NCBI GenBank assembly: GCA_016199085.1
Contig: JACQHJ010000001.1
Span: 3,334 to 67,333 of the forward strand
Direction of reading: 5' to 3'
Length of the DNA stretch: 64,000 bases
Source: Candidatus Levyibacteriota bacterium
Lineage (GTDB): Bacteria > Patescibacteriota > Microgenomatia > Levybacterales > UBA12049
Shown: piece by piece, positions 2,625-60,543 of the stretch
Layout of the letters: the number at the start of each line of letters is the position of its first letter
How positions within the stretch are numbered: the first letter of the stretch is position 1
The notes under the pieces: generated by a model
What the model was told of the DNA's origin: nothing
Databases searched by the model: none
Seen by the model: the letters and a program-made list of their open reading frames with translations, nothing else
Program-made: the position numbers and the translations under genes

Positions 2625-3701
2625 ATGAAGCAGCCCAATTTACTTTCCGAGATTGTTTCGAGTGCAAAAAAAAGAGGCTACATTACCCAAGAGGAAATTC
2701 TCGCACTTTTCCCAAAACCAGAAGAGCACCTAGAAGAGCTAGATAAGCTTTATGACAAGTTAATGTCCCAAGATATTGACGTTTTTGAATCAGTTGCCGC
2801 CCAAAACGAAGAAGAAAAGCCGATTGAAGACTTGGAAAAAGAACTAGAAGCATTAACCGTCCTTACTGAGGGAACGGTTTCAGATCCGGTGAGGATGTAT
2901 TTAAAAGAAATCGGCAGAATTCCGCTTTTAACTTTTGATCAGGAAATTAACCTTGCCAAAAAGGTAGAAAAAGGTGATAAAAAATCAAAGCAAGTTTTAA
3001 TCAATTCAAATTTAAGGCTAGTTGTCTCAATTGCCAAAAAATATGTAGGACGTGGACTTACCTTACTTGATCTTATTCAGGAAGGAAACCAAGGGCTTAT
3101 TAGAGCAGTTGAGAAATATGACTGGAGAAGAGGTTTTAAATTTTCAACCTATGCAACGTGGTGGATAAGACAATCTATAACAAGAGCGATAGCCGACCAG
3201 GCAAGAACAATCAGGATCCCTGTTCATATGGTTGAAAACATCAATAGGTTTTTAAGGGCTTCAAGAAAACTGATGCAAGAACTTGGCCGTGAGCCAACTC
3301 CCGAGGAAGTTGCAAAAGCTTTGGGAATTGAGCCAGATAAAGCTTTGGAGATTATTAAAATATCCCAAGAGCCCGCAAGTCTTGAATCTCCAGTAGGAGA
3401 TGAAGAAGACAGTAGACTAGGTGATTTTATCCACGATAGTTCTGCTCCGACTCTTTTTGATACGGCAAGTAGAGAACTTCTAAAAGAGCAAATTGAACAG
3501 GTTTTATCAACGCTTTCTGATAGAGAAAAAAGAGTTTTGGAAGAAAGATTTGGATTAAAAGATGGGAGACCAAAGACTTTGGAAGAAGTTGGTAAAATGT
3601 TTGCCGTAACAAGAGAAAGAATTAGACAAATTGAGGCCAAAGCGCTTAGAAAATTAAGACATCCATCAAGGGGAAATAAGCTCAAGGATTATCTAGGCTA
3701 A
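2625..3701 (+). CDS. rpoD: RNA polymerase sigma-70 (primary sigma factor)
   Basis: Region 1.2 ([16 protein letters not shown]), region 2 ([53 protein letters not shown]), and regions 3 and 4 ([29 protein letters not shown]). Confidence 0.95.
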
Positions 3702-5128
3702 GCAGTAACTACTCTGATTGTTGAAGTGCCACTTTTTGAAGTCCAATGATCTCCGTGTAGAGCAATAAAATTATCTCCTTTTTTGCAAAGGTTGGCGTCT
3801 TTAATTTTTGTTAAAGCTTTTTCAATATCTGACTTGGTTATTTCGCTTTTTTTGTCCAAAGAATCCTGATAAATAGGCATTACACCATAACTTAAGGAAA
3901 GCTTTCTGACAAGATCATCCTTAGGACAAAAGGCAAAAATAGGCACATGAGGTCTGTATCGGGATAGCATTCTGGCTGTTTTGCCGCTTTCGGTAAAGAT
4001 TAAAAACCCTTTTACAGTCTCTTTTTTTATCTTTAATACCTTGTAAAGGTTAAACGCACTATCGCAGACCATCTGGGATGTATCGGAAAGCTCGTAGGAA
4101 AAGACATTCCTAATATCCGGTACTCTATTCTTATTTTCACTATAAGAAACAACTTTTGTCATTATTGAAACGGCTTGGATAGGGTATTTCCCGCTTGCGG
4201 TTTCCCCAGATAGCATTACGCTATCTGTAAAATCATAGACTGCGTTGGCAACGTCAGATACTTCAGCACGCGTTGGGATAGGTCTTTGGGTCATAGACTC
4301 AAGCATCTGCGTTGCTGTTATTACCGGTATTCCTTTTTGAATACAGTCTCTGATTATTTGTTTTTGGTAGAAGGGAACTTCTTCTAAAGATAGTTCTACT
4401 CCAAGGTCTCCTCTTGCAATCATAATGACGTCAGATTGAGCGACAATGTTTTCTATATCTAAAATAGCCTTGGGAGTCTCAATTTTAGCTACAATACTTG
4501 CTTTAAGATTTAGTTTTTTCATCTCTTTTTTTAGATAGGCAATGTCTTTGGTGCTTCTGACAAAAGAGAGTGCGACAAAGTCAATTTCTTTTTCTTTGGC
4601 AAGTTTAAGACCAATTCTATCTCCGTCGTGAAGTACTGGAAAATCAAAGTCCAGATTGGCAATATTGATAGTCTTTTTATTTAGAAGAATACCTGAAGAC
4701 AATGATTGAAGATATGTTTTTCCGTTCTCAATTCTAACTATAAATTGAAACAGTCCATCATCTGCAGAAACTTTTTGGCCCTGCCTTAAAGAGCTTATGA
4801 TATCGGGCGGATTAAAAGATATTCCTTTTTCACTTATTCCTAAAGCTTTTGAGACGAGTACTTTTTCTCCGATCTCAATCACAATTTTGTCAAACGGCAA
4901 AGAAAGTCTTACTTCAGGTCCTTGAAGATCTAAGAGTGTGGCTATAGAGGAATTTAGTTTTTTGGCTATCCTTTTTACCCTGTCAATTCTTTCACTATGC
5001 CATTCTAGGTCACTATGTTTAAAATTAAACCTAAAAACATTTACACCAAGACCAATTAGTTCTTCTATTTTTTCCTCAGAGTCTGTTGAAGGGCCGATTG
5101 TGGCAATAATCTTAGTTTGTTTTTGCAT
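3698..5128 (-). CDS. pyk: pyruvate kinase
   Basis: N-terminus [11 protein letters not shown]..., then [20 protein letters not shown] and SGETA motifs. Length is 476 aa. Confidence 0.93.
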
Positions 5129-5566: not shown

Positions 5567-7210
5567 TTAATTACCTGATTCGATAACATCGCAGAAAAAT
5601 CTGGGGTTTTTGGCAATATCTTTTAAAACTCCTTCCGTTTCTCTTGCCGTTAAGCCTTGTGAGTCTACAAATTTTTCACCCTCTTTTTTTCTTTGTCTTT
5701 TTTGGACAATCGTGCCTCCGATTTTTTGGGTTTCTATTACATTTGAGATCTCATCTTCAAGGAAAACTGTTGCCCTAACAGCGTATTCTGGGGCATCAGA
5801 TTGAATTATTAAAAATCTTGTATCATATTTTTTATCCGCCTGGGCAAGTAAGCCTTCGTTTAATGTTTGTTTCTGTCCGCTCCAGAAAGGCAGATATCCG
5901 AAAGATTGCTTTCCGTGTGAATAATAAATATAGCCCCAAAGAGTATTAACATACAGTGGAGCAGTTACTGCACAGACTGAAAATTTATCTCCTTTCGCTT
6001 GTCTATATGTATAGTCAATAACCGCTTTTTCATCTTTTAGTAAAAATTGATCTCCTCCAAGCATTGACGTTGCCTTAAAGTTGTCTTTTGCCATTAAGTT
6101 GAGGTTTCCCAAAATTATGGCCAACAATAGAAGAAGTCCAAGGAATCTATAAGTTTTGTTATTTAAAATGTGATTAATGCCCAGTGCAAATAAAAGAGTA
6201 ACGGCACCAAAAATCGTCGTTTGGCCTACATGGACATTTAAAACTCCGCTTGAAAAGGCAAATAAAGGAAAAGTTGAGAAAACCCAGGCTAAAAGAAAAA
6301 TAAGCTCTGGTCTTTTCTTTTCCATTTTTACAGCCACTAAAACTAAAATAATAAAAATTGATAAAGCTAGAAAGTTATTAAACGAGAAAAAGGAGAAATA
6401 TAAAAGCTCGGAGAGTTTTTGGAAATAGTTGAAAAAGTTTTGAGAGATAATGACAAGATCCTGTCCGCTTGTGTAATAAAGCAGCGCTTTAAACCCCTGG
6501 AAATTCCATTTAAGCTCTGAGATTAAAAACGTGCTTAAAAGTAGAATTAAGAGCAAAGAATTTAGTACAAAGGTCTTAAGACTAATTTTTAGTTTGTAAT
6601 AGAGAAAAAAGATCGGATAAAAAAAGATAAGATAACCCAGATAGATATTTGATCCGGCAGATATGGCAAGGCCGACGACACTTATGGTAAGTCCAATATT
6701 TTTCTTTCTAAAAATAAATAGGGAAAGTCCTGTAAAAAAGATGATTGAGCCAATAACCATAAGTGAGGCATTAGATATAAGCTTGGAGAAGGCAAAAAAT
6801 TCATAAGAGAAGACCCACATGAGACAAGCAAGAATGCCAACCGATTTTTTCTCAAAGAGTAGTACCGAAACATAGTAGAGAACAAAGACCATTGAGAGAT
6901 CTAGGAGAATAAAGAAAAGCGCTGCAAAATTTACATTGAAGTTAAAAATTAAATAGACAGGGGCAAGAAGATAATACAAAAGGGGGCTATTAAATACTCC
7001 TGGTATATCTGTTTCTGGCCCTACAAGCTTTAGATCTCCTTTGGTAATAATCTCAACAATTCTTTGGGCGTCTCTTGCCTGATCATAGGCAAAAATAACA
7101 TTATCCCAAAGATTAAATACTCTTATAGAAAAACCGATTAAAAAAATAACTACGAGGGAGGATATTATAAGCCAGTTTTTCTTTAGAAACTGGGAAATTA
7201 ATAAATTCAT
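5567..7210 (-). CDS. polytopic membrane glycosyltransferase, GT-C fold (GT39/ArnT/PMT-like)
   Basis: More than 10 predicted TM helices. The N-terminal loop FAYDQARDAQR resembles the DE/DxD loop of ArnT/PMT enzymes. A soluble C-terminal domain follows. Confidence 0.7.
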   Translation of the reverse strand: MNLLISQFLKKNWLIISSLVVIFLIGFSIRVFNLWDNVIFAYDQARDAQRIVEIITKGDLKLVGPETDIPGVFNSPLLYYLLAPVYLIFNFNVNFAALFFILLDLSMVFVLYYVSVLLFEKKSVGILACLMWVFSYEFFAFSKLISNASLMVIGSIIFFTGLSLFIFRKKNIGLTISVVGLAISAGSNIYLGYLIFFYPIFFLYYKLKISLKTFVLNSLLLILLLSTFLISELKWNFQGFKALLYYTSGQDLVIISQNFFNYFQKLSELLYFSFFSFNNFLALSIFIILVLVAVKMEKKRPELIFLLAWVFSTFPLFAFSSGVLNVHVGQTTIFGAVTLLFALGINHILNNKTYRFLGLLLLLAIILGNLNLMAKDNFKATSMLGGDQFLLKDEKAVIDYTYRQAKGDKFSVCAVTAPLYVNTLWGYIYYSHGKQSFGYLPFWSGQKQTLNEGLLAQADKKYDTRFLIIQSDAPEYAVRATVFLEDEISNVIETQKIGGTIVQKRQRKKEGEKFVDSQGLTARETEGVLKDIAKNPRFFCDVIESGN

Positions 7211-7367
7211 GTTTTAGAACGCGAAATCTATATTATTAGTAACACAACGGATGAGCATTTGTAAACAGGCTTAAGATAACCTTGTTACGTTTACTTTATT
7301 CACCCGTTTTTTATATACGGCTATATTCTCTTTATATCTAAAAGAACTTATTTAGAAAATCTTAAAT

Positions 7368-7385
7368 TTTTAAGGAGGTGATATA
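7368..7385 (+). promoter_or_regulatory. strong Shine-Dalgarno (TAAGGAGGTG) 7 nt upstream of the small ORF
   Basis: taaggaggtgatataATG read directly from the sequence. Confidence 0.7.
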
Positions 7386-7523
7386 ATGAAAATACTAGCT
7401 CTCGCAGTTTTAGCTTTGGCATTTTCCTTTTTCGTAGGCAGTACTTTTGCCCAGACGGCAACTCCTACGCCAACAGTTACAGTGCCAACGCAAGCTCCAT
7501 CAACAGGCTTTGGAGGGGCTTAA
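7386..7523 (+). CDS. 45-aa secreted Thr/Pro-rich peptide (signal peptide plus TPTPTVTVPTQAPSTGFGGA)
   Basis: Perfect SD. N-terminal signal peptide MKILALAVLALAFSFFVGSTFA with an AQ cleavage context. The gene ends 5 nt before the sortase gene. It falls below the ORF-track size cutoff. Confidence 0.55.
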   Translation: MKILALAVLALAFSFFVGSTFAQTATPTPTVTVPTQAPSTGFGGA

Positions 7524-7528
7524 AATAA

Positions 7529-8140
7529 TTGAAAAAACTACTCTTTCCCATAGTATTTCTTATAGTGATAGTAATCCTAGGACTTACCTTAGGAAAAGAG
7601 TATGTGGGAAAGCAAACGACATTATCAAAGGATAACCTTATTAATTCTCCAATTACTTCTAATGTTACCTCTAAGGAAGTTGAAGAAAATTTCAGCATTC
7701 CCCAAACTCTTATCATTAAATCCCTAAGTGTTAACGCAGTAGTTGAACAGGTAGGAATGGATAGTGAGGGTAAAATGGATATTCCCAGTCAAGTTCAAAA
7801 CGTCGCCTGGTATAACTTAGGATATAAGCCTGGCGCAAAAGGCCCAGCTGTATTTGCAGGGCATTTAGATACAAAAACAGGAGATCCTGCAGTTTTTTAT
7901 AACATTGCAAATTTAAATAGCGGAGATACGATCAGCGTTATTGATGAAAACGGAAAGAAACTTACCTTTGAGGTTGAAAGGGTAGCTTCTTATGAATATA
8001 ATAAGTTTCCTCTACAAGAAGTCTTTGCAGATGCAAGCGCAAAAAGACTTAATTTAATAACCTGCGGAGGAGATTGGGATAAGCTTTCAAAAAACTATTC
8101 CAATAGAACTGTTGTGTATTCCGTATTGAAAGAGCAATAA
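7529..8140 (+). CDS. sortase family transpeptidase
   Basis: N-terminal TM anchor, conserved His (VFAGHLD), a TLxTC active-site motif (RLNLITCGG) and a conserved Arg (NRTVVYS). The start codon is TTG. Confidence 0.85.
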   Translation: MKKLLFPIVFLIVIVILGLTLGKEYVGKQTTLSKDNLINSPITSNVTSKEVEENFSIPQTLIIKSLSVNAVVEQVGMDSEGKMDIPSQVQNVAWYNLGYKPGAKGPAVFAGHLDTKTGDPAVFYNIANLNSGDTISVIDENGKKLTFEVERVASYEYNKFPLQEVFADASAKRLNLITCGGDWDKLSKNYSNRTVVYSVLKEQ

Positions 8141-8181
8141 GCCTGGATTTACCCCTCAATTTTTGTTAAAATATCTTACAT

Positions 8182-8253
8182 TCCGTGATAGCTCAATGGT
8201 AGAGCAGGTCGCTGTTAACGACAAGGTTCTAGGTTCGAGTCCTAGTCACGGAG
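8182..8253 (+). tRNA. tRNA-Asn (anticodon GTT)
   Basis: Cloverleaf folded by hand. Acceptor TCCGTGA/TCACGGA, D-arm GCTC...GAGC, anticodon stem GGTCG/CGACA with loop CTGTTAA (anticodon GTT), T-arm CTAGG-TTCGAGT-CCTAG, discriminator G. CCA is not encoded. The overall layout matches bacterial tRNA-Asn. Confidence 0.85.
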
Positions 8254-8311
8254 CTGCATATTTTAGCCTCAAGATTGACATTTATCATATTAGTCTTATA
8301 AGATAATATCA

Positions 8312-10009
8312 ATGCTTAGGGTTTTGAAAGCAAATTTATTGAAAAACAGGCTTTATACAGCTTTTTTCCTTCTGGTACTTTTTTTCTTTTCATTTCTCTT
8401 TGTTGGTACTAAGCCAGCGCTTTCGCAAAATGAAAACAATGAGGACACAAAAGTGGTTCAAATTAAACGTGATGGCAGGGAATTTACAACCAGAATCCTC
8501 AAAGAAGTTGCCGACCCGCTTTATCAAAGACCACAAAGAGAAGGAAGCCTTATAGTTAAATTCCGCCCAAACGTTTCCGAATCCGAACAAGACCAAATTA
8601 ATAAAACAATTGGTGTTTTAAAAACAGAGAAACTTTATCTTTCAAAAACAAAAAGAATTAAAGTCTCCCAAAGTAACGTTGAGAAAGCGCTTAATGCATA
8701 TAAAAGTAATGTTAACGTAGAATATGTAACGGTTGATCGTATAGCAAAAGCTCTCCTTACTCCCAATGATCCTTCCTTTTCCCAGCAATGGGGACTGACA
8801 AAAGTCGGTGCCGTGGGGACTTGGGATATTGCAACAAGCTCCTCACAAACCAGAATTGCAATTTTGGACTGTGGCATCTATGACAGCGCTTCAACATATA
8901 GGGGTCCTGATGGTAATTTTGGTCATCCTGATATTAGAGACAAAGTTATCTCTCGCGTCAATTTCACAACAGCACAAGACGCTGACGATTTTTGCAATCA
9001 CGGAACGCACGTTGCGGGAATAGCAGCAGCCTCAACCAATAATGGTATTGGTGTTGCAGGTTTAGGCTACAATGCAAGTATTGTTAATGTTAAAGTTTTG
9101 GGTGACAACGGCTCTGGTTCTTTCAGCTGGATTATTAACGGAATTTTATGGGCTTCAGGCTGCGACACTGATCCTTGCGGACCAAGACGGGCAGACATCA
9201 TTAATATGAGCCTTGGTGCAACAGGAACTTGCGATTTACTCCTTCAAGAAGCAATTGATAAAGCGTGGCAGCAGGGAATGGTTATTGTTGCTGCAGCTGG
9301 CAATAGCGGCGCAAATGGAGCAATAACGCCTGCAAACTGCAACAATGTCATTGGTGTAGCAGCTTCAGATCAAAACGACAACAAAGCCAGCTTTTCTAAT
9401 TTCGGACAAAACGTTGATGTGGCAGCTCCCGGGGTAAGCATTTTGTCCACAAACTATGTTGGAGGCTACTCTTCATTTAATGGCACTTCCATGGCTTCTC
9501 CTTTTGTTGCAGGACTTACTGCTTTAATTTGGAATACTTCATATAACACAACTAATAACGGTGTTGTTAACCGCATTTTCCAAACAGCCAATGCAAATAA
9601 ACTAGCCGGTTCAGTGTATGGAAGAATAGACGCTTATAGCGCAGTTATAGCAAACGGGGCAACACCAACACCTACGCTTACACCAACCCCAACTTTAACG
9701 CCAACGCCTACTCCTTCCCCAACGCCAACTCCTACGCCTTTAAGCTGTAGTGCGCCAACTATTTTAAGTCATTCAGATACAAATGTAACAAGAGGAGGAA
9801 CTGTAAGCTTTTCCTGGAATACTGTTTTAGGTGCAACAAGGTATAGGGTTCAAAGGCAAAATACTAACGGTTCATGGTCAACCCGTACAACAACCTCGGC
9901 AAAAAGCTTTAACGGAACAGACTCCTCAAATGATCCCAACTGGCGGGTATTTGTTTATTCAGGAAGTTGCACTCCGCTTCCTGGTCCCGCAACTGTTTTT
10001 GACCCGTAA
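8312..10009 (+). CDS. secreted subtilisin-like serine peptidase (S8) with TP-repeat linker and C-terminal Fn3-like domain
   Basis: Catalytic triad context DCGIYD, HGTHVAGI and GTSMASPFVAG. N-terminal signal/TM. A TPTPTLTPTPTLTPTPTPSPTPTPTP linker at about 9655-9745 nt. Confidence 0.9.
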   Translation: MLRVLKANLLKNRLYTAFFLLVLFFFSFLFVGTKPALSQNENNEDTKVVQIKRDGREFTTRILKEVADPLYQRPQREGSLIVKFRPNVSESEQDQINKTIGVLKTEKLYLSKTKRIKVSQSNVEKALNAYKSNVNVEYVTVDRIAKALLTPNDPSFSQQWGLTKVGAVGTWDIATSSSQTRIAILDCGIYDSASTYRGPDGNFGHPDIRDKVISRVNFTTAQDADDFCNHGTHVAGIAAASTNNGIGVAGLGYNASIVNVKVLGDNGSGSFSWIINGILWASGCDTDPCGPRRADIINMSLGATGTCDLLLQEAIDKAWQQGMVIVAAAGNSGANGAITPANCNNVIGVAASDQNDNKASFSNFGQNVDVAAPGVSILSTNYVGGYSSFNGTSMASPFVAGLTALIWNTSYNTTNNGVVNRIFQTANANKLAGSVYGRIDAYSAVIANGATPTPTLTPTPTLTPTPTPSPTPTPTPLSCSAPTILSHSDTNVTRGGTVSFSWNTVLGATRYRVQRQNTNGSWSTRTTTSAKSFNGTDSSNDPNWRVFVYSGSCTPLPGPATVFDP

Positions 10010-40467: not shown

Positions 40468-41578
40468 AAATAAAGCCATTATCGCAATCGGGGTTTTTGT
40501 GGCCATTTTGGTCCTTATCGTTATTGCAAAAACTGCAAGTTTTTATCCTTTTTTGTTTCAGCTAATTTTTGACAAGGAAGTAAAACTAAAACAAGCAGAG
40601 CCGAGCAAAATAAACGTCCTCATTTTAGGAATTGGAGGAGGATCGCATGATGGCCCAAATTTAACTGATACGATAATTTTGGCAAATATTGACGGGGCCA
40701 AAAATAAAGTAACACTTACTTCAATCCCAAGGGATTTATGGATACCTGTTTTAGAAGGTGGCAATAAAAAAATTAATGAAGCTTATGCAAAAGGAGAAGT
40801 AAAAAGAAAGGGAGGAGGAATAGCACTTTCCGAAGCTGTAGTTGAAAATGTCACGGGACAACCAGTTGACTATGCCGTTAGAATTGATTTTAACGGGTTT
40901 GTAAGAGCGGTTGACATTATCGGAGGATTGGATATTATTGTTGATAAAACTCTGGATGATTACAGATATCCGATTAGCGGTAAAGAAGACGACACGTGTG
41001 GTTTCTCAGAAGAAGATATTCAGGCTTTTGTAGCAACTGAAAGCGCGGAACAAAAACTGGCAGAAAAATTCTCCTGCCGCTATAAACATTTACATTTTGA
41101 CGCCGGCCCTCAACATTTAGATGGAGAAATGGCACTTGAATTTGTTAGATCAAGACATGGAGTAAACGGTGAGGGAAGCGACTTTGCCAGAAGCAAAAGA
41201 CAGCAAAAAGTAATAACCGCTTTCAAAGATAAAATATTTTCCGCACAAACTCTCATTAATCCTGCCAAAATCTTAAGTCTATATGACATCTTAAAAGATA
41301 GTATTGATACAAATATAAAACAGGAAGAATTTGATGATTTCATAAGACTTGCTCAAAAAATGAAAGATGCTCAAATAACCAGTCTCGTTATCGATACGGG
41401 AGATGAGGTTAACGATAGACCGGGTCTTTTGGACGAGGCCCCATATAAAGAGGAATATAATTTCTTATCAGTTTTGATACCCAGGGTTGGAAACGGAGAC
41501 TTTTCAGAAATTCATCAGTATATTGACTGCCGGCTAAGCGGAGGAGAATGTCCTCTGACAACAAACTCTAAAAATTAA
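40460..41578 (+). CDS. LytR-CpsA-Psr (LCP) family cell-envelope phosphotransferase
   Basis: TM anchor followed by INVLILGIGGGSHDGPNLTDTIILANID. The start overlaps the tpiA stop. Confidence 0.85.
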   Translation: MPKNKAIIAIGVFVAILVLIVIAKTASFYPFLFQLIFDKEVKLKQAEPSKINVLILGIGGGSHDGPNLTDTIILANIDGAKNKVTLTSIPRDLWIPVLEGGNKKINEAYAKGEVKRKGGGIALSEAVVENVTGQPVDYAVRIDFNGFVRAVDIIGGLDIIVDKTLDDYRYPISGKEDDTCGFSEEDIQAFVATESAEQKLAEKFSCRYKHLHFDAGPQHLDGEMALEFVRSRHGVNGEGSDFARSKRQQKVITAFKDKIFSAQTLINPAKILSLYDILKDSIDTNIKQEEFDDFIRLAQKMKDAQITSLVIDTGDEVNDRPGLLDEAPYKEEYNFLSVLIPRVGNGDFSEIHQYIDCRLSGGECPLTTNSKN

Positions 41579-43667
41579 TTTTATATAATTTAGCCTCACC
41601 TTTTTGATAAATAATTTCTCCTAAGCTTTTAATATTTTCCTCATTTAGCTCAGGATACTTTTCTTTTTCAAGTAAAGAGACAACAATATATGAAGCATTG
41701 TATTTTTTGATAATTTCCTTTGCCGTCTCAACATTTTTGGTTGTATAAAAAGTTTTAACATCATCCACTCTTGGTCCGACAACGTCGTAAGTTCCTCTCC
41801 AAAGCCATTCATGGACTGGCCAGCCCATGATTGTTGGAAGGCCAGTATTAGCAGAAATTCTGGCATAATCCGTATAAGAATCTCCTACTGCTTCAATTAC
41901 CACAGGCTGACCCTTAATATTAATATTTAACCAGTTTATTAAATCAAAATCCTCAGGATGAGTGGTACTTAGATATTTTGTTCCATCAAGCCCTTTATAG
42001 ATTTTCAAATTATCGTAATATGAATTGATCGCAAAAATCGGGTAGGAAAAAACCAAGTACAAAAGAATAAGTGTTGGGATAAAAAACAGTACCAATGTTT
42101 TTTTATTTCTTAAATGCATTAATATTTTTACGATTATGTACCCGCATGACAGCGAAAGCATAATAAAGGCTTCATAAGTTAACTTAAACATCGTGTTTGC
42201 TCTGTAATGGGCTGGATAAATATCTTTTACGTAGATTATTTCAGGAATAAGGATAAGAAGAGTGGAGAGTATTATTAGAAATGCTACAAAAATATCGCTT
42301 TTTGTAGTTTTATAATTTCTCTTAAATTTTAAAAACAGAATAAAAGAGATGACGAAAAAATAGAAGAATCCATAAAGAATAATAAGTTGCCAGATGGGAG
42401 ATGTCTGACAGTGATTTGATTCGAAAAGTAATGGGCCAAGTTTTCCCATTTTGGTTAGAATTTCCGGTGCACAGATAACTCCAATGCCCGAGACGAACGG
42501 CTTGAAGTTAACGCTGAAAGGAAGAGAGAAAGCAAAAAAACCTACTCCTAAAATAAAGACAGATGAAAAAAAGTTTGAAAAAGAAACCTTTTTATGAAAG
42601 CTGATAAGTAAAATTATCAAAAACGTAAGCAAACCGTAAATTATTCCATCCCATGCATTTGTCATGTACATTACAGCAAGTAAGAATGACAAAATCCCAA
42701 TATAAAGCTTCTTGACGTTTTCCTCTAAAAGCATTGCAAATATTAAGCCTATTGACAAAAGCACAATCGGAATATCTAAAACATGACCATGCAGGTCAGA
42801 GACTACGAAGGAATATAATGGAAATTCATGAATTGTAAATTGAATAAATCTTGTTGCGTTTGGATACCAATATCCGTTTGGAAAACTAAGCGGCAAAAAA
42901 GGAAGATTCCAGAAAACAATAGGATGGTCCTGCGGTATGTAAGCTTTAAAGAAAGCATAGATTGTTGTTAGGTTTCCTGAAAGAGCGACTAGGCTTGCTG
43001 AAAGAATTGAAGCAACAGCTGATTTTAAGGAAAATCTTTTATTGTCGAATAAATTTAGAACCAGAGAGAAAACCTGGGTAAAAGTTAAGGCAAATAAAAG
43101 ACCAAGCATTAGATTGTAACCAATGTTTGAAGCAATACCGGAAAGTTTTAAAAGTACGGCTGTTATTAAGTGTCCGAAATAATAATAATTTATCGAAAAG
43201 TTTGTATACCACATATCCTTTGGCGGAAAATAGTCGCTTCTTAGGATTGAATTTACAAAACCAAAGTCCATGAATTTCTCAAGGCCGTTGATGTTGGGCA
43301 TATTCCCTCTTATAAAAGACCAAAATATTAAAGCAAGCAAAAACAAAGCTTCCTCAATAATTATTAGCCTTAAGCTTTCCTTTAGTATTTTCCTAAAATC
43401 TATTTTTCTTAAAAGATACAAATTTAAAAAGAGGAATAAAAACAAAACGAAGATGATTTCAGAAAACGAGAATTTAAATATCTTAAGAAAAGAAAGAATG
43501 AAAACACTATACGAGATAAGAGCTATGCCGATTGTTTTTCCAAAAATATAACCTTTGTCTTTAAAGTTTTTAAAAAGAATTGAAGTTATTGGAAAAAACA
43601 ATGCGCCAATGATTAAGAAAACAAACCAAAATCTTAAAATAGAGAATAAATCAATTAAATCTAGCAT
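41568..43667 (-). CDS. DUF2298 / Chlor_Arch_YYY-type polytopic membrane protein (GT-C-like) with C-terminal soluble domain
   Basis: About 15 TM helices. The YYY motif reads SINYYYFGHL. A C-terminal domain of about 200 aa. Confidence 0.7.
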   Translation of the reverse strand: MLDLIDLFSILRFWFVFLIIGALFFPITSILFKNFKDKGYIFGKTIGIALISYSVFILSFLKIFKFSFSEIIFVLFLFLFLNLYLLRKIDFRKILKESLRLIIIEEALFLLALIFWSFIRGNMPNINGLEKFMDFGFVNSILRSDYFPPKDMWYTNFSINYYYFGHLITAVLLKLSGIASNIGYNLMLGLLFALTFTQVFSLVLNLFDNKRFSLKSAVASILSASLVALSGNLTTIYAFFKAYIPQDHPIVFWNLPFLPLSFPNGYWYPNATRFIQFTIHEFPLYSFVVSDLHGHVLDIPIVLLSIGLIFAMLLEENVKKLYIGILSFLLAVMYMTNAWDGIIYGLLTFLIILLISFHKKVSFSNFFSSVFILGVGFFAFSLPFSVNFKPFVSGIGVICAPEILTKMGKLGPLLFESNHCQTSPIWQLIILYGFFYFFVISFILFLKFKRNYKTTKSDIFVAFLIILSTLLILIPEIIYVKDIYPAHYRANTMFKLTYEAFIMLSLSCGYIIVKILMHLRNKKTLVLFFIPTLILLYLVFSYPIFAINSYYDNLKIYKGLDGTKYLSTTHPEDFDLINWLNINIKGQPVVIEAVGDSYTDYARISANTGLPTIMGWPVHEWLWRGTYDVVGPRVDDVKTFYTTKNVETAKEIIKKYNASYIVVSLLEKEKYPELNEENIKSLGEIIYQKGEAKLYKINF

Positions 43668-45292
43668 TTTGAATTAATATTGTAGATTATAAATCCATCT
43701 TTAGTATTTTCAAATACTTTTTTAAAGTTTTTATCAAAAAAACTTTTATTAACGACTGCATCTTCGTTATTTAAGTTAATATCGACATAATTTAGATGAA
43801 AATTTAAAGACTGTTTGCAGAAGTACTCCAAGTCACTGGTATTTAATAACTTTTTTCTGATATCATCCCTTTTTTGCGTGTTATACCCCTGGCTCCAGGC
43901 AAAATATGGCCAGCCTAAGAATATTTTCCTTCCAGCAAGGGATGCGTAGTTATAGAGATACTGGTTGTTTAAAAACACAGCGTTTTTACTCGTATTTTCC
44001 ATTATCCATGAAATATTTTTGTTCTTGGGATAATCAGAAAGAGTAATCTTTGAATCATTTAAGATTGGGAAAAAGTCTATTATTCCAGAGAGCGTTAAAA
44101 AGAAAAACAAGACTACGACTAAAGGTTTAAAGATATTTCTTTTTTTCCAAAGAATATATAAGGCAAAAGCCGAAAACATACCCCCGACAATTATGGAAAA
44201 ATTAAAAAACTTATGATTGGCTGCAATCTCCGGAGAAAACTGAATTAAATTTGCAACTATGAAAAGACTAACAAAAGAGATAAGAATCTTTTTGTTAAGT
44301 TTATTTGTAAGAAAAAATCCTAAAGGTATTAAAAAGATATTAAATCCAAGGTTGTAAAACCAATAATTTACAAAGCTAACCAGATTTAGATTTTCAACCA
44401 GGTAGCCTGGATTAATTGCAATTGCAGATTCTGATGGCACTTGGGAAAGGAATAAATACTGTGGAAGGGCAATGATACCCCCGATTAAAAGTACTAAGAA
44501 AATATATATGCGTTTTTCTTTTAAAAATATTAACATACAAGCTAAAACAAGAGCAGTCATTAAAAACACAGCAATATTTAAAAGGAAAGACAATCCAAAA
44601 ACGATTGCTATTAAAAAAGTTTTCTCAAAATTTTTGTGTTTTGTATGCTCATTAAACTTAAGTATTAAATAGATAATAAGAAGTGACAAGGCATAAGAGA
44701 GGGCAACGTGCCTTTGGTTTGTATAGATATTTAGGTTCCAAAAAGCTGACACAATGCTATTGTCATAAGGGCCAAACGAAGCAAATTTAGTGCTAGTTAA
44801 AACTGCATAAATTGAATCTAAAGACAATCCATTTTTGGCAAAATAATTAACAAAACTAAGTGTTGAGTTAAACAGGAAAAGAATAACGCTAAGTACTCCA
44901 ACAGCTTTTGATTTGAATATTTCTTTTGCAAAAAAATAGATCATTAATATTAGAAGGGTAAAACCAAAAATAGATGGAATATTTAGAGCAAGGTCAATTC
45001 TAAGTCCGATTTTTTCCAAAAAACCCACTAAAAGATAAAAAAGAAAATGATATTTTATTGCTGGACCGGAAAACAGGGGGTATTGCGGTGGAAGATTATC
45101 CCCAATTGAAAAGGATCTAATTAAAGGAATGTGACTTGAGAAGTCGCTCCAGGCTTTTGATCCAATCATCATTGAGCTACCACTATAAGAAAAGCTTGAA
45201 AACATAAGCCACGAGGAGAAAATTAAGGCACCTATTAAAATTACAATTTCTACAAAGTGCAATTTTAGGATATTTTGCAATCTAAGTTTCAT
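43661..45292 (-). CDS. polytopic membrane glycosyltransferase-like protein (GT-C)
   Basis: About 12 TM helices and a C-terminal soluble domain. Overlaps the neighbouring genes. Confidence 0.55.
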   Translation of the reverse strand: MKLRLQNILKLHFVEIVILIGALIFSSWLMFSSFSYSGSSMMIGSKAWSDFSSHIPLIRSFSIGDNLPPQYPLFSGPAIKYHFLFYLLVGFLEKIGLRIDLALNIPSIFGFTLLILMIYFFAKEIFKSKAVGVLSVILFLFNSTLSFVNYFAKNGLSLDSIYAVLTSTKFASFGPYDNSIVSAFWNLNIYTNQRHVALSYALSLLIIYLILKFNEHTKHKNFEKTFLIAIVFGLSFLLNIAVFLMTALVLACMLIFLKEKRIYIFLVLLIGGIIALPQYLFLSQVPSESAIAINPGYLVENLNLVSFVNYWFYNLGFNIFLIPLGFFLTNKLNKKILISFVSLFIVANLIQFSPEIAANHKFFNFSIIVGGMFSAFALYILWKKRNIFKPLVVVLFFFLTLSGIIDFFPILNDSKITLSDYPKNKNISWIMENTSKNAVFLNNQYLYNYASLAGRKIFLGWPYFAWSQGYNTQKRDDIRKKLLNTSDLEYFCKQSLNFHLNYVDINLNNEDAVVNKSFFDKNFKKVFENTKDGFIIYNINSKC

Positions 45293-46568
45293 TATCAACA
45301 AGTTTGGCAACTTTTTGGCCAAGTTCTACGGCATAATTTGTACCCCTGTCCCAGGGATATACCTGTTCAATATTTGCCAAAAAGACATTTTCAAAAGGAG
45401 TTTTAAAAGAGGGAAGGATTTTTGAGTAATTAACGGGAATTATAGGCTGAGCAAAAGGAGCTTTAAAAAGCTGGTAGTCTATTATATTTTTGGCATAGTC
45501 GGGATTAATTCTTTTTAGGTATGGGTCAAATATTTTTAACAGCTCCTCCTTTGTAATCTTAAAGTACAAATCATCACTGGCTTTATAGTTTCCTAAATAT
45601 AAAAGATGTTCGTTATCGTAATATTTTTTATCGATGAGATTAGTATGTTCAACAATTGCCATTACAGGTGCTTTTTTATCGCAGACATTTAGCCAATAAG
45701 TGCCTTCCCTAAAGAAAGGCTTCTTAAGTCTTAAGAATAAGTTTGTTGCGCCTAGTCCTTTTAGTTTCCCCAAACTCTCTTTGTATTTAGCAGGAAGAGT
45801 AGGAGCGATTTTAAGAAAAAGGAAAGATGGAGTAGTTACAATTATTTTGTCAAAGTTTTCATTTTCTATTTCTCCGTTTTGATATTGAATTTTTAAGTTT
45901 GTTTGGTTTTTCCCATCTAGCTCTAAAATTTCTGTTTGGAAAAAAACCTTACCCTTTTTTGCCTCAACTTCTCTAACAAGCGCCTTGGCAAATTCTAGAA
46001 ATCCTTTAGCCGGATAAGCAAGTGAAGGAGTTCTTTTTTGAATTCTTGCCCAAAACCAAGCAAGAGAAACGTTTCTGGAAAACTTACCGAATTTATTGAC
46101 AAAAAGTGGTTCCCAGATCATTTGATAGGATTTTTTTCCCATTAATTTTGGCAAGACAGTTGCGGCGTTGTATTTTTCCAGTACTTTCCAAAACGGTTCA
46201 TATCTTAAAAATCCTACAATAATACCCATTCTTAGTCTGTCCACTAAGGAAAGAAGGGGAAACTTCAAAACTGTAATCGGAGAATCAAACTGGTAAATAT
46301 TGTTTTCTACAAATACGGAAGTCTTAGGTCTTTTAATTATTACTCGGTAGTTAATTTCTTTGGCAAGACCTAGGATATATTTATCATTGGTAAACCAGTG
46401 GTGGTAGTGTTTTTCTAAAGACCAATCCCAATTTTTCTCTTTATATCCGATTGCAAGTCCTCCGGGACTCGGATCTCTTTCAAATATTTTAACATCGTGT
46501 CCTTTTTTAACTAATTCAAACCCTGCAGCAAGGCCTGCAAAGCCTGCGCCGATAATTGCTATTTTCAT
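45282..46568 (-). CDS. FAD-dependent oxidoreductase (amine-oxidase/protoporphyrinogen-oxidase-like Rossmann)
   Basis: N-terminal MKIAIIGAGFAGLAAGFEL...VKIFERDPSPGG dinucleotide-binding motif. Confidence 0.7.
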   Translation of the reverse strand: MKIAIIGAGFAGLAAGFELVKKGHDVKIFERDPSPGGLAIGYKEKNWDWSLEKHYHHWFTNDKYILGLAKEINYRVIIKRPKTSVFVENNIYQFDSPITVLKFPLLSLVDRLRMGIIVGFLRYEPFWKVLEKYNAATVLPKLMGKKSYQMIWEPLFVNKFGKFSRNVSLAWFWARIQKRTPSLAYPAKGFLEFAKALVREVEAKKGKVFFQTEILELDGKNQTNLKIQYQNGEIENENFDKIIVTTPSFLFLKIAPTLPAKYKESLGKLKGLGATNLFLRLKKPFFREGTYWLNVCDKKAPVMAIVEHTNLIDKKYYDNEHLLYLGNYKASDDLYFKITKEELLKIFDPYLKRINPDYAKNIIDYQLFKAPFAQPIIPVNYSKILPSFKTPFENVFLANIEQVYPWDRGTNYAVELGQKVAKLVDNET

Positions 46569-47956
46569 AGTGAAATGGTTCCCCTAGAGACAAGAAGCAG
46601 TAAACCACCTATCAAGGCTATTAATAGGCCAATGGCTCCAGCGGTAATTATAGTAGCATTACCCGTTGGTGGTAAAGGGGTAGTTGGAGTCGGGCTTGAG
46701 ATGGCAACAGATGGCGTTATCGTTAAAGTTGAAGTAAGAGTCGGACTTTGTATTAAAGAGGAGGTAGGACTTAAAGAGACGGTTTGAGACGTGGTTGGCG
46801 TAAGCGTTGGAGATTTTGTCGGAGTCGGCGAGCCAGATTCTGTGCTAATTTGAGATCCGGATGCGTTAACCATAAAGGCTTGGGTAATTGTCTTTACCGC
46901 TCCGGTTGAATCTTTGGCAACTATAGTTATTGTATGATCACCGGGAGGAAGTTCTTGGTCTGGTCTGTATTTCCAATTTCCGTTTGCATCAGCCTTAACG
47001 TCTGCTGTTATTTGAGTTTCGGAATTGATAATAATCTGCACGGTTTCATTAGCTGGTGCTGTCCCTTTAAACTCAGGTTGATTGTCTACAAAAGCCTGGT
47101 CCTTTTGAGGAGTTAAAATTTGAGGATTTCTTTTTGTTTCAGGAGCAACTAGGCTGCTACTAAAAGAAGGGAAGCTTTCGGTAGTTAAAGCCGTAGTAGC
47201 TGGCGTTGTATTGATTGTAAAATCATAATCATTTGAAAGTGTAATAAAAGGTACAGGATCGCTTTGTTCGGATAACAAAACTGCATTTGACCTAAGTCCG
47301 TCTCCAAAGGCCAAAAGTTTTAGGATTTGTCCTTTTTCGAGTTTAAAATATGTGGCAAGGTTAGAAGTTCTCAGGGAATTTAAAGGAAGAAGATATGTCC
47401 CATCATTTTTGGAAAGAGTAGAGATTACTTGTGAATTATCTGTCGTAAGATAAATAATTGCTTCGCCTGGGCTAACTCCGGTTGGAAGCATTAGTTTTCC
47501 ACTCATTGGATTTTGTTGCTCTGGTTGGTTTTCAATTGCGCTTCCAGTTGTTGCTTCAAAGGGATTTGCATTATTTAAATAGGTATCGTTACTACTAATT
47601 ATTGAAAAATAATATTTTGCGTCAGGTTTTAGGTTTCTAACTGTAATGTTATGAATATTGTAGCTATTGATGCTTCCTGAATTTTGGTCTCTATCATCAA
47701 GGGCAGATTGCCCAAGGGATTGGCTTTCCCCAAAGCTTAACGCTCCCGTTACTTTGTCTTCTGTATAATAAGAAACGGTAAAAGATTCTTGGGTAATATT
47801 ACTTATTCTTACTTCTTGAGGATCATGCGAGGGGCCAGCTCTAATTGAGAATATTCCACCCTCTCTTACTAAAAAAGTCGTAACGCCGATTCCAATAGCA
47901 ATAAGAAGTATACCTAGTAGATTAGGTATTTTTTTATTCCAAATACTTTCCCTCAT
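46565..47956 (-). CDS. sortase-anchored surface protein (LPPTG) with Ig/Fn3-like domains and S/T/P-rich stalk
   Basis: N-terminal signal anchor. The C-terminus reads ...SPTPTTPLPPTGNATIITAGAIGLLIALIGGLLLLVSRG, which is LPXTG plus a hydrophobic segment plus a basic residue. Confidence 0.75.
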   Translation of the reverse strand: MRESIWNKKIPNLLGILLIAIGIGVTTFLVREGGIFSIRAGPSHDPQEVRISNITQESFTVSYYTEDKVTGALSFGESQSLGQSALDDRDQNSGSINSYNIHNITVRNLKPDAKYYFSIISSNDTYLNNANPFEATTGSAIENQPEQQNPMSGKLMLPTGVSPGEAIIYLTTDNSQVISTLSKNDGTYLLPLNSLRTSNLATYFKLEKGQILKLLAFGDGLRSNAVLLSEQSDPVPFITLSNDYDFTINTTPATTALTTESFPSFSSSLVAPETKRNPQILTPQKDQAFVDNQPEFKGTAPANETVQIIINSETQITADVKADANGNWKYRPDQELPPGDHTITIVAKDSTGAVKTITQAFMVNASGSQISTESGSPTPTKSPTLTPTTSQTVSLSPTSSLIQSPTLTSTLTITPSVAISSPTPTTPLPPTGNATIITAGAIGLLIALIGGLLLLVSRGTISL

Positions 47957-48279
47957 GGACTTAATTCGCCTCCTACAGATTCCCGAGCACTATTTGTTCC
48001 TTCATTGGATTCTGTAACGGTTGGCGTGGGAAGCGGTGAAAGGCCTTGTTCCACTTGATCTTCTGAGACTTCAAAGGTATAGCTTGGTTCAATAATCTCT
48101 CTTTTTTTAAGTTCTTCAATAGTTTTCAAATCAAAATCAGGGTTTATAAAAAGAATTTGTTTGTTTACATCTTGGGGGATGGTGGAAGTCCTAAAACTAT
48201 GGTAAATGTTAAAAACAACCCATAGGATTACAACAATAACTAGGGGAACCAATAATATTAAAACGTCTTTTCTTTTCAT
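47953..48279 (-). CDS. small membrane-anchored protein (possible PilP-like)
   Basis: TM anchor and an acidic soluble tail. Overlaps its neighbours by 4 nt. Confidence 0.35.
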   Translation of the reverse strand: MKRKDVLILLVPLVIVVILWVVFNIYHSFRTSTIPQDVNKQILFINPDFDLKTIEELKKREIIEPSYTFEVSEDQVEQGLSPLPTPTVTESNEGTNSARESVGGELSP

Positions 48280-48285
48280 ATAAAA

Positions 48286-48897
48286 TTACTCTTTATAAAA
48301 TACTTTTCCTTGTAAATTAAATTGCAATGAATTATCAAAAGCAGACATGTTTATACTGATGTTTGAAACATCGGTAACTCTTTGCATATTTTCAACTTTT
48401 TCTAAAAATGCCAATGCATTTTCTATTGTTCCTTTAGCGGTAATATTGAAAGTATAGTAGTAAAAATCTCCCTTTTTTGAATAAACGATATTTGATGCTT
48501 GAATACTGACAAGTTTCATAGAACTATTTACTACAAGAGTTTGTAATTGTCCTGTAATTTTTGGTGCCTCCGTGTTTTTAGGAACTGTTTCATAAATAAT
48601 CGGAAGATCGTCTTGTATACTGTTATATTTTGTTTGTAAAACCGAAAGATTATTAATTTTCTGCTCAAGTCTGTCGCTAACGAATTTCGCGTCCTCAAGT
48701 TGTTTTTGCAAGTTTGCGATGGTAGAAAGGGTCGGATTAATGGCAAAAAGTGCAAGGATAATAATTGCAATAAGAGTTAAAACAACTGTTGTAAACTTCT
48801 GGGCTTTTTCTTTTTTAAAGTCTGGAATAAGCTCCAAATATTTACTGTATTTCTCTTTATTCGCCTTTTTAAATAATTTATTAATTATTGTCTTCAT
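48286..48897 (-). CDS. PilO-like type IV pilus assembly protein
   Basis: Short cytoplasmic N-terminus, one TM, a coiled coil (IANLQKQLEDAKFVSDRLEQKINNL), then a beta-rich domain. It is paired with the PilN-like gene. Confidence 0.5.
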   Translation of the reverse strand: MKTIINKLFKKANKEKYSKYLELIPDFKKEKAQKFTTVVLTLIAIIILALFAINPTLSTIANLQKQLEDAKFVSDRLEQKINNLSVLQTKYNSIQDDLPIIYETVPKNTEAPKITGQLQTLVVNSSMKLVSIQASNIVYSKKGDFYYYTFNITAKGTIENALAFLEKVENMQRVTDVSNISINMSAFDNSLQFNLQGKVFYKE

Positions 48898-49444
48898 ATT
48901 CGCTTGCTATTGGTTTTAGTTTAGCCGTGATGTTAATTACAATTATGGCACTACTTGTTTTTGTTTCAATTTTCCCTATACTGACGCTTTCGATGTTTTC
49001 ATATGTTTTTAGCTTATTCGTGAAGCTGCTGAGAGCTGCAACTGAGTCGGCATTTATTTCTATAGCTATAGAATCAGAAGAAAGAGAAACTTTAGTAAAA
49101 TTAATTCCTGGTTCCGCAAGGTTTAAAATATCTTTATAAATCTGTATTTTTTTTGCTCCTATCTGGGAGAAGTTTTGGGCAATAGACAGTCTGTCTTGTA
49201 AATTGCGATATTCGTCTTCCTGTTTTTTAAATGCTACTACAATAGCCTGTTTTTGTTTTATCTTAGTATGAAGATCAACGAGTTGCTGGTCGAGGCCGAA
49301 TCTCCAAAGAAACGCACCCAAAGCGATAAGCTCGGTGATAATGATTAAAACCCTTCCTACGCTTAAGGCCCAATTGATAATTCTTTCAAATAAATCACTC
49401 TTTTGGTCTTTGACTAAATTTATGGAAACAAAGCGTTTTGCCAT
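48881..49444 (-). CDS. PilN-like type IV pilus assembly protein
   Basis: N-terminal RFVSINLVKDQ (PilN starts ..INLLP..), one TM, a coiled coil, and a C-terminus IAIEINADSVAALSSFTNKLKTYENIESVSIGKIE typical of PilN. Confidence 0.55.
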   Translation of the reverse strand: MAKRFVSINLVKDQKSDLFERIINWALSVGRVLIIITELIALGAFLWRFGLDQQLVDLHTKIKQKQAIVVAFKKQEDEYRNLQDRLSIAQNFSQIGAKKIQIYKDILNLAEPGINFTKVSLSSDSIAIEINADSVAALSSFTNKLKTYENIESVSIGKIETKTSSAIIVINITAKLKPIASEYEDNN

Positions 49445-60187: not shown

Positions 60188-60543
60188 TATAAAATAAGCA
60201 GTAATGTTTTTAAAATAAATACAAAAATCATCACAGAAATTAGAAGGTTAACCGAGCCTACAATTCTTGCAAGTAAAGGATTATTCTTTTGATACAAAAC
60301 GGAACTAAATCCTAAATTAAAAACAAAAATAAAAATATATAAAGCTACGGGAATAAAAATTCCGTAACCTTGCGTCAATCTTTCATTTCCCCAGGGCAAT
60401 TGATTGAAAATTGGAATGTATGGGGGAATATTTTTTAAGTTTAATAAAATAAATATAATCGTTAAGACAAGGATAAGAAAGCTAAGTCCAAATACCCCTA
60501 AAGTAATTCTGTCTTTTTTAATGTCGCTAAAGAATTTTCTCAT
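60187..60543 (-). CDS. small 3-4 TM membrane protein
   Basis: 118 aa, hydrophobic. Overlaps its neighbours by 1 and 17 nt, which suggests an operon with the glycosyltransferases. Confidence 0.45.
   Translation of the reverse strand: MRKFFSDIKKDRITLGVFGLSFLILVLTIIFILLNLKNIPPYIPIFNQLPWGNERLTQGYGIFIPVALYIFIFVFNLGFSSVLYQKNNPLLARIVGSVNLLISVMIFVFILKTLLLIL

Follow-up and report, generated by a model that had tools for sequence, protein, structure and literature searches.

A secreted peptide gene and a sortase gene lie side by side in a Levybacteria genome

For the 64-kilobase (kb) stretch of DNA analysed here, called the window below, we found a pair of adjacent genes on the forward strand, the first encoding a secreted pre-peptide of 45 amino acids (aa) and the second a sortase of 203 aa that resembles class F. 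The window has a G+C content of 36 % and comes from the genome of a Candidatus Levybacteria organism, of the Microgenomates group within the candidate phyla radiation (CPR). The features of the pair are listed here, with an arrow marking each predicted cut.

7372 to 7379, forward strand: strong Shine-Dalgarno sequence AAGGAGGT of the peptide gene, 6-7 nucleotides (nt) before the ATG at 7386
7386 to 7523, forward strand: gene of the 45-aa pre-peptide, the predicted mini-substrate of the sortase (ATG at 7386, TAA at 7521-7523)
7386 to 7451, forward strand: Sec-type signal peptide, residues 1-22 (MK, 16 hydrophobic residues, then STFA)
7452 to 7481, forward strand: Thr/Pro-rich spacer of the mature peptide, QTATPTPTVT
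7482 to 7520, forward strand: extended sorting-type motif V33-P-T-Q-A-P-S-T40↓G41-F-G-G-A45, the last 13 residues, containing the pentapeptide APSTG
7512 to 7516, forward strand: GGAGG Shine-Dalgarno sequence of the sortase gene, inside the last peptide codons (GGA GGG, Gly codons of the tail)
7529 to 8140, forward strand: class-F-like sortase of 203 aa, with a TTG start and a 5-nt gap after the peptide stop

The pre-peptide reads MKILALAVLALAFSFFVGSTFA up to the predicted signal peptidase I cut and QTATPTPTVTVPTQAPSTGFGGA beyond it. A preliminary description of this DNA had reported a tiny signal-peptide open reading frame (ORF) with a Shine-Dalgarno sequence, a 5-nt gap to the sortase and a mature part of about 23 aa, and all of this was borne out, positions included. 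Cleavage by signal peptidase I is expected at A22↓Q23 and would leave a mature peptide of 23 aa with no Lys. The bond predicted to be cut by the sortase, T40↓G41, corresponds to codons 7503-7508; FGGA alone follows the TG, so that neither a hydrophobic segment nor a basic tail stands after the motif. The same description took the peptide for something other than sortase cargo (a pilin block, an acceptor mimic or a regulator) and overlooked that its C-terminus is a conserved sorting-type motif, VPxGAPxTGxGG. In the 64 kb scanned, the 45-aa peptide is the only ORF that ends in xPxTG plus at most 14 residues. Pfam and NCBIfam scans of the peptide gave no meaningful match, and the LPXTG anchor model TIGR01167 did not match it even at E <= 10. 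The gene is not annotated in this genome's own gene calls, and the exact peptide sequence is missing from a collection of 15 billion proteins; it was therefore not called as a gene in this genome.

Near its N-terminus the sortase has a membrane helix (residues 5-26), from which a disordered linker leads to the catalytic beta-barrel (about residues 58-200). Pfam PF04203 (peptidase C60) matches residues 63-200 (69.9 bits, cut-off 26.6, E = 2.2e-19). The catalytic residues H112 (7862-7864), C179 (8063-8065) and R193 (8105-8107) are invariant across 30 homologues. From the motifs first attributed to the enzyme, the His/Cys/Arg triad and LxTC hold, whereas the full TLxTC does not, as the Cys motif reads NLITC, with Asn in place of the first Thr. 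The AlphaFold2 model (predicted local distance difference test, pLDDT, 89.1) has a sortase fold with a helix at residues 5-26, and Foldseek matched it with probability 1.00 to structures of class A, C, D and E sortases, at TM-scores of about 0.55-0.75 and identities of at most 21 %. With its triad, its modelled fold and its membrane anchor, the enzyme looks catalytically competent.

A search of the single sequence against PDB sequences returned nothing, and no class F structure was among the PDB matches of the single-sequence, profile and Foldseek searches. Structure therefore does not place the enzyme in a class, since the profile search and Foldseek match only other sortase classes at these low identities. 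Among the class models, scored as hidden Markov models (HMMs), the best was NCBIfam class_F_sortase (NF033748) with 144.3 bits, which is below its curated cut-off of 166 and more than 100 bits ahead of the others (GN 30 bits, E 21, D 16-20). Membership of class F is thus probable from sequence, at a sub-threshold score. This class agrees with the LPXTG-type motif presumed in the preliminary description, as SrtF of Cutibacterium acnes, the sole characterised class F enzyme, accepts LPXTG in a review's account. The NCBI protein MBI3984322.1, 99 % identical to the window's sortase, is named 'class F sortase [Candidatus Levybacteria bacterium]'; it is annotated at 191 aa, from a start 12 codons later, by which part of the membrane helix is lost. 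The TTG start at 7529 restores the MKKL... N-terminus and the membrane helix that are common to the homologues. A search of the six-frame translation with the family HMM, together with a motif scan of the 64 kb, found no second sortase in the window.

The pairing and the C-terminal motif are conserved

We compared 80 loci with sortase relatives from species-representative genomes, which together with the window's own make 81 (designated L plus a number where a single locus is meant). At 60/81 of them the sortase is preceded, on the same strand, by an ORF that ends in xPxTG plus at most 8 residues, an ending that we found in only 3 of the 4,636 remaining ORFs (30 aa or longer) at those loci. 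Under looser criteria a peptide is also recognised at L034, with a slightly longer tail, and at L079, downstream of the sortase, and larger upstream proteins with the same motif occur at L059, L062, L068, L072 and L075. Every locus having a peptide gene has one, and no tandem copies were found in the sortase loci scanned. A reciprocal profile search (5.8 billion proteins, E <= 1e-3) yielded at least 205 peptide clusters, all of them unnamed or 'hypothetical' and none with a Pfam domain. The motif and the A↓Q site are present in all 120 peptide clusters listed, and for 5/5 profile-found peptides on long contigs the next gene downstream encodes a PF04203 sortase. The preliminary description had let its proposal hang on the small ORF being kept beside sortase orthologues, and kept it is, from whichever gene one starts. 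Among the named carriers are Levybacteria, Daviesbacteria, Gottesmanbacteria, Roizmanbacteria, Curtissbacteria, Parcubacteria/Paceibacterota, Saccharimonadales and Peribacteraceae; in a neighbour-joining tree of the catalytic domains, which is a rough one, loci with the peptide partner occur throughout the CPR part.

The anatomy of the family was counted over 62 peptides, with invariant columns taken from alignment A2. A short, basic N-terminus leads into a hydrophobic core of about 16 residues, and a signal peptidase I-type site, A-x-[A/G]↓Q-[T/S], follows in 59/62 peptides, its Gln being invariant in A2. Mature peptides measure 17-91 aa (median 33) and their spacer is of low complexity and variable length, the spacer/mature composition being T 26 %, P 17.5 %, S 11.5 %, A 11.5 %, Gly 9 % and K 0.7 %. 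The C-terminus carries the motif V-P-[S/T]-G-A-P-x-T-G-[R/F/M/L]-G-G, with its P, T and G in 62/62, P(-4) in 59/62, the A before P in 56/62, G at +2 in 40/62 and G at +3 in 22/62. After TG there come 1-9 aa, mostly 3-4, and then the stop; 0/62 peptides have a hydrophobic segment or a basic tail beyond the motif. The conserved portion of the family is, in other words, a sortase-type pentapeptide with its flanks, and the remainder is spacer. Of the roles first proposed for the peptide, an acceptor mimic leaves the invariant C-terminal P-x-T-G unexplained, and a Lys-linked pilin-like block is unlikely with so little Lys in the mature family and none in the window's peptide.

A small ORF in front of an enzyme gene could also be a translated leader that couples or tunes expression of the sortase, or a pseudo-substrate that occupies its active site. 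In favour of such a role, the final peptide codons in the window, GGA GGG, are at the same time the GGAGG ribosome-binding site of the sortase, only 5 nt away, and about 20 % of the orthologues work without an adjacent peptide. Across the loci, however, the gap between peptide and sortase has a median of 52 nt, being at most 15 nt in 10/59 loci and more than 30 nt in 42/59, and the xGG is still conserved; that the xGG tail is kept merely as the ribosome-binding site of the sortase is thereby ruled out. Furthermore, a leader needs no Sec signal peptide, no signal-peptidase site and no invariant P-x-T-G, and the conservation is at the level of amino acids: all four synonymous codons are used across loci at each invariant motif residue, so that selection acts on the protein. 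We consider a non-substrate role highly improbable. The median gap of 52 nt fits co-transcription of the two genes.

When the ORFs of the 81 loci were clustered, no universal third gene emerged, only synteny within subclades, beyond which the surrounding genes vary by locus. The functional unit is therefore the gene pair itself, nothing else around it being conserved. The genes shared within subclades are a receiver-only response regulator (downstream, about 20 loci), a Lon protease (13 loci) and a histidine kinase (1-3 kb upstream, 14 loci). Within at least one CPR subclade the response regulator (about 120 aa) and then Lon come 3' of the cassette, with a histidine kinase and an OmpR-type regulator 1-3 kb upstream; this arrangement is seen at L003, L018, L020, L026, L043, L051, L057, L058, L060, L081 and L085, and not in the window. 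At L082 the cassette (3116-3802) stands beside a Y1 transposase, and at L083 (3403-5207) beside a serine recombinase and a Phage_CRI gene; the cassette may be a mobile unit.

Related sortases adjoin larger proteins with the same motif

For relatives of the sortase outside the CPR, the gene order is again partner and then sortase, and the partner is a larger protein with the same motif. In Priestia megaterium it carries MPKTGMGG, then a transmembrane (TM) segment and RKKPVSK, and in Thermogemmatispora it is a DUF4397 protein in which MPNTG precedes a TM segment and RRRR. The 727-aa partner in a Paceibacterota genome has LPETG ahead of a TM segment and a basic tail, and LPETG partners adjoin sortase orthologues in L068 and L077. 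The partners in Caldilineae and Chloroflexia are Ferritin_2 proteins, exported by twin-arginine translocation (Tat), that end in MPxTG[R/L]GG and a short hydrophilic tail. Four of these partners lie directly 5' of the sortase.

L059, 2962-3654: Ferritin_2 partner
L062, 2806-3465: Ferritin_2 partner
L086, 2501-3175: Ferritin_2 partner
L088, 2501-3178: Ferritin_2 partner

Near the Chloroflexi Ferritin_2 partners there is often a second Ferritin_2 gene together with a cupredoxin gene.

Of the 120 homologues nearest to the ferritin-like partner, 119 have the xPxTG ending (MPxTG in 103). Hydrophilic tails of 6-22 residues are found in 112 of the homologues, and about 5 possess a real hydrophobic segment together with a basic tail, as in ...MPTTGAGGTNATLLELLTGGVALVGGGWLLRRRTSQ. 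With both tail types present in one family, tail-less and canonical signals interchange there. The tail-less members P0245 and P0299 adjoin a sortase and the sole TM-tailed member looked up does not, an anecdotal comparison of three members that fits a dependence of tail-less signals on a dedicated adjacent enzyme. The presence of [A/M/L]PxTG-x-G-G on partners that look like substrates suggests that the motif is a sortase signal.

These partners also bear on two other ways in which the peptide could be used. Sortases hydrolyse or cyclise substrates in vitro, and here the enzyme might trim the tail by hydrolysis, or by head-to-tail cyclisation onto the N-terminal amine, and so release a soluble Thr/Pro-rich signal or secreted factor, by a logic like that of AgrB/AgrD. 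Release would be physically easy for a peptide without a membrane anchor, and the response regulator 3' in about 20 loci and the histidine kinase 1-3 kb off in 14 speak for it as well. The two-component genes are, however, found neither in the window nor at most loci, and the peptide body is a low-complexity T/P/S sequence of 17-91 aa with no conserved 'message', in which only the motif and the signal-peptidase site are kept. Moreover, the same tail-less motif stands on folded ferritin-like proteins of about 220 aa, which are not signals, and we regard maturation of this kind as unlikely.

The peptide might instead tether the membrane to the wall, if its signal peptide stayed uncleaved and anchored the N-terminus while the C-terminal Thr was joined to peptidoglycan; it would then be the monoderm equivalent of Braun's lipoprotein, and the spacer would set the distance. 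Such a tether would account for the needlessness of a C-terminal anchor, suits a small protein with a spacer of variable length and one copy per locus, and would give sortase and peptide the same membrane topology. The hydrophobic core is nevertheless short for this purpose, at about 16 residues, and the A-x-A↓Q signal peptidase I site found in 59/62 peptides is typical of cleaved signals and not of signal anchors. At the same time, the Chloroflexi counterparts have Tat signals on soluble domains. On balance we find a tether distinctly unlikely.

A predicted route from the membrane to the wall

That the peptide is a true substrate of the sortase we regard as likely. The wider proposal, of a two-gene cassette in which a dedicated minimal substrate is followed by its own class-F-like sortase, probably co-transcribed with it, and is attached by it to the cell wall, is one that we favour by a small measure. 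We hypothesise that the 45-aa precursor is exported via Sec, and that its signal peptide would keep it at the membrane, beside the N-terminally anchored sortase, until it is cut at A22↓Q23. Binding of the extended motif could take place while the signal peptide is still held in the membrane or shortly after cleavage, and the 12 residues of that motif may make up for the absent membrane-retention segment. The sortase would recognise VPxG-APxTG-xGG, cut T40↓G41, free GFGGA and form a thioester of the Thr on Cys179, which an amine of the envelope would then resolve. By analogy with characterised anchoring sortases, the likeliest acceptor would be the stem peptide of lipid II or of peptidoglycan. 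The transferred Thr/Pro-rich peptide would have about 18 residues here (family median about 29), and the product, joined to the wall but having neither a passenger domain nor a membrane anchor, would be equivalent to the 'wall-spanning region' of an ordinary surface protein. The peptide is plausibly O-glycosylated as well, to judge from a composition typical of O-glycosylated linkers and, as circumstantial evidence, from a gene of the PMT family in the window.

60527 to 62008: PMT-family (GT39) protein O-mannosyltransferase homologue, 52 kb from the cassette

For the CPR as a whole, and above all for Microgenomates, we put forward more tentatively, and as less likely than not, that a dedicated sortase grafts a passenger-less, anchor-less and probably glycosylated Thr/Pro oligopeptide onto peptidoglycan. 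The oligopeptide would be an encoded 'secondary wall polymer' or wall cap, attached through a new signal, VPxGAPxTGxGG-stop, that needs no membrane retention, and the same logic would apply to the display of ferritin-like proteins in Chloroflexi.

Several points weigh against attachment of a dedicated substrate. The peptide is without the hydrophobic segment and basic tail that retain canonical signals, and its efficient capture is an assumption. The first position of the pentapeptide is Ala (56/62) and not Leu, and the sole characterised class F enzyme is reported with LPXTG in the review cited above. About 20 % of the orthologous loci, among them a whole Roizmanbacteria clade, have no adjacent peptide, and L001, whose sortase is the nearest to the window's in the tree, is without one too; an adjacent peptide is therefore not indispensable to the sortase. 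In Actinoplanes, quadruple deletion of class F sortases led to no phenotype, and physiological importance may accordingly be subtle.

Two LPPTG proteins may be further substrates

The preliminary description had also named two large proteins of the window as likely cargo, and both are present as it had them, with LPPTG followed by a hydrophobic segment.

46565 to 47956, reverse strand: LPPTG protein with Big_13 and FN3-like domains and a hydrophobic C-terminus, ending LPPTGNATIITAGAIGLLIALIGGLLLLVSRGTISL
53228 to 54664, reverse strand: LPPTG protein with a cohesin-like and two PKD domains and a hydrophobic C-terminus, ending LPPTGPTELITIGAIGVLMAFIGAILLLAL

After LPPTG there is a hydrophobic stretch of about 20 residues, and the charge of the tail amounts to a single Arg in one protein and none in the other; TIGR01167 reports neither of them. 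The two share a C-terminal domain of about 35 residues, LPPTG-x3-[IL]IT[AI]GAIG[LV]L[IM]A[LF]IG..LLL, which may represent a form of the sorting domain peculiar to this lineage. Both proteins may be further substrates of the sortase, and are plausible ones because it is the only sortase in the window, because the family tolerates Leu at the first position, with LPETG partners beside its orthologues at L068 and L077, and because the characterised class F enzyme accepts LPXTG, as the review has it. The case is not established because the two genes lie about 39 and 45 kb from the sortase gene and are not linked to it, the proteins are without the xGG flank and have little or no basic tail, and TIGR01167 does not report them. 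Another sortase could also be encoded outside the window. A scan of 629 kb around orthologous sortases for LPxTG followed by a TM segment returned L068 and L075 only, with L072, beside its sortase, found separately, and this rarity argues against such cargo generally clustering with the enzyme.

With LPPTG proteins in the same genome, the peptide could be imagined as an adaptor or a polymer unit. Its freed N-terminal amine would attack the thioester of another peptide, or of an LPPTG protein, producing head-to-tail chains, or inserting a spacer that separates large surface proteins from the wall. The peptide does have a donor motif and, once processed, a single free amine, and sortases polymerise pilins in other bacteria. 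Known pilin chemistry is, however, excluded by a Lys content of 0.7 %, an N-terminal Gln tends to cyclise to pyroglutamate and so to block the amine, and we know of no sortase that uses an N-terminal Gln as nucleophile, which makes this reading very unlikely in our view.

The first LPPTG protein (46565-47956) is encoded by the fourth gene of a PilN/PilO operon. In their order, the genes of this apparent operon (41568-49444, reverse strand) encode a PilN-like protein, PilO, a membrane protein of 108 aa, the LPPTG protein with Big_13, a protein resembling FAD amine oxidases and a pair of very large polytopic membrane proteins, of which one is DUF2298 and the other has no family. A sortase-type surface protein is unusual within an operon for type IV pilus assembly. 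In the second LPPTG protein (53228-54664), residues 350-420 match NCBIfam CPR_pilus_PamR weakly, with 22 bits against a cut-off of 300, which probably reflects merely the common fold of immunoglobulin (Ig)/PKD-like domains. CPR_pilus_PamR itself belongs to a recently described CPR pilus system.

Surroundings of the cassette in the window

The genes around the cassette are housekeeping or unrelated ones, with primase, sigma-70 factor and pyruvate kinase upstream and tRNA-Asn, an S8 protease and an alpha/beta hydrolase downstream. Two features of the immediate flanks are as follows.

7299 to 7327, forward strand: weak sigma-70-like promoter match TTCACC-17-TATATT (9/12 consensus positions), upstream of the peptide gene
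8182 to 8254, forward strand: tRNA-Asn(GTT), 42 nt 3' of the sortase stop

A scan for promoters and terminators gave weak consensus matches only, and promoter-like sites of this kind number 8 in the 1.2-kb region, with 3.4 expected. The tRNA-Asn was the sole match when positions 7150-8350 were scanned with Rfam. The S8 subtilase that follows it (8312-10009, forward strand) has a fervidolysin-type prodomain, a long (TP)n linker and a C-terminal domain without assignment; Thr/Pro linkers are frequent among the exported proteins of this organism. Divergent from the cassette lies a gene for a polytopic membrane protein of 547 aa (5567-7210, reverse strand), which has zero Pfam or NCBIfam matches even at E <= 5 and recalls GT-C glycosyltransferases, a resemblance of layout only.

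Comparison with known systems

To recent literature, the physiological roles of class F sortases 'remain unknown'. A study of protein families across the CPR reported one sortase family that is present in over half of the CPR genomes, and nearly everywhere in Microgenomates, and named no substrates; other CPR papers mention sortase in passing only. In the literature searched there was no description of this pairing of peptide and sortase, nor of substrates of CPR sortases. What is new here is best described as a conserved, unannotated cassette of a class-F-like sortase and a passenger-less, anchor-less mini-substrate with an extended tail-less motif. The conserved partner with its 12-residue motif offers a concrete candidate substrate of class F for work in vitro, for example the peptide TVPTQAPSTGFGGA, and it shows at the same time how annotation pipelines can pass over a conserved small gene or leave it without a name. 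CPR organisms live attached to other cells, and surface chemistry is therefore central to their biology. If a signal of this kind does work without hydrophobic segment and basic tail, it would revise the standard model of substrate retention and could give compact tags for sortase ligation.

Class F, as represented by C. acnes SrtF and NF033748, is the closest comparison. It is the best-scoring class and shares with the window's enzyme the His/Cys/Arg triad, the N-terminal membrane anchor and the sortase fold, and LPXTG ends in P-x-T-G like the motif that the window's enzyme would recognise. The window's system differs in a score below the cut-off, in Ala (Met in Chloroflexi) for Leu, in the conserved flanks VPxG...xGG and in the anchor-less partner. 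SrtF of C. acnes is moreover, in the review's account, a housekeeping sortase for ordinary LPXTG proteins, whereas the cassette has one dedicated partner.

The class-F-like cassettes of Chloroflexi, Firmicutes and others share the order of partner then sortase and the signal [A/M/L]PxTG-x-G-G, and their Ferritin_2 partners are mostly tail-less. In contrast to the peptide, their partners carry folded passenger domains, 200-700 aa in size; Tat signals are present on some of these proteins, and a complete TM segment plus basic tail on some. The class GN ('marine') sortase TIGR03784, which adjoins its VWA-domain target, offers an analogy only, in that a sortase stands beside a single cognate substrate with a variant motif and the pair is a conserved unit. 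The GN targets are large and have a TM segment after the motif, and the window's sortase reaches 30 bits to TIGR03784 against a cut-off of 158.

AgrB/AgrD is likewise a functional analogy only. There too a membrane cysteine enzyme is encoded beside a small precursor, a short C-terminal tail is removed via a thioester and a signal peptidase takes the N-terminal part, but the enzyme folds are unrelated, our peptide has no internal Cys for a ring, and its body is of low complexity and not species-specific as in pheromones. From sortase-assembled pilins the peptide is set apart by having no Lys nucleophile and no matches to CnaB/CnaA Ig-like domains.

The canonical LPXTG signal (TIGR01167), as used by sortase A and lipid II, resembles the peptide in export by a signal peptide, in a Pro/Thr-rich segment before P-x-T-G, in the predicted cut between T and G and in the predicted transfer to an amine of the wall. 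The peptide is, however, without passenger domain, hydrophobic segment and basic tail, so that two of the three defining features of such a signal are absent. What is left, the 45-aa peptide, is essentially the wall-spanning region of canonical substrates in free-standing form.

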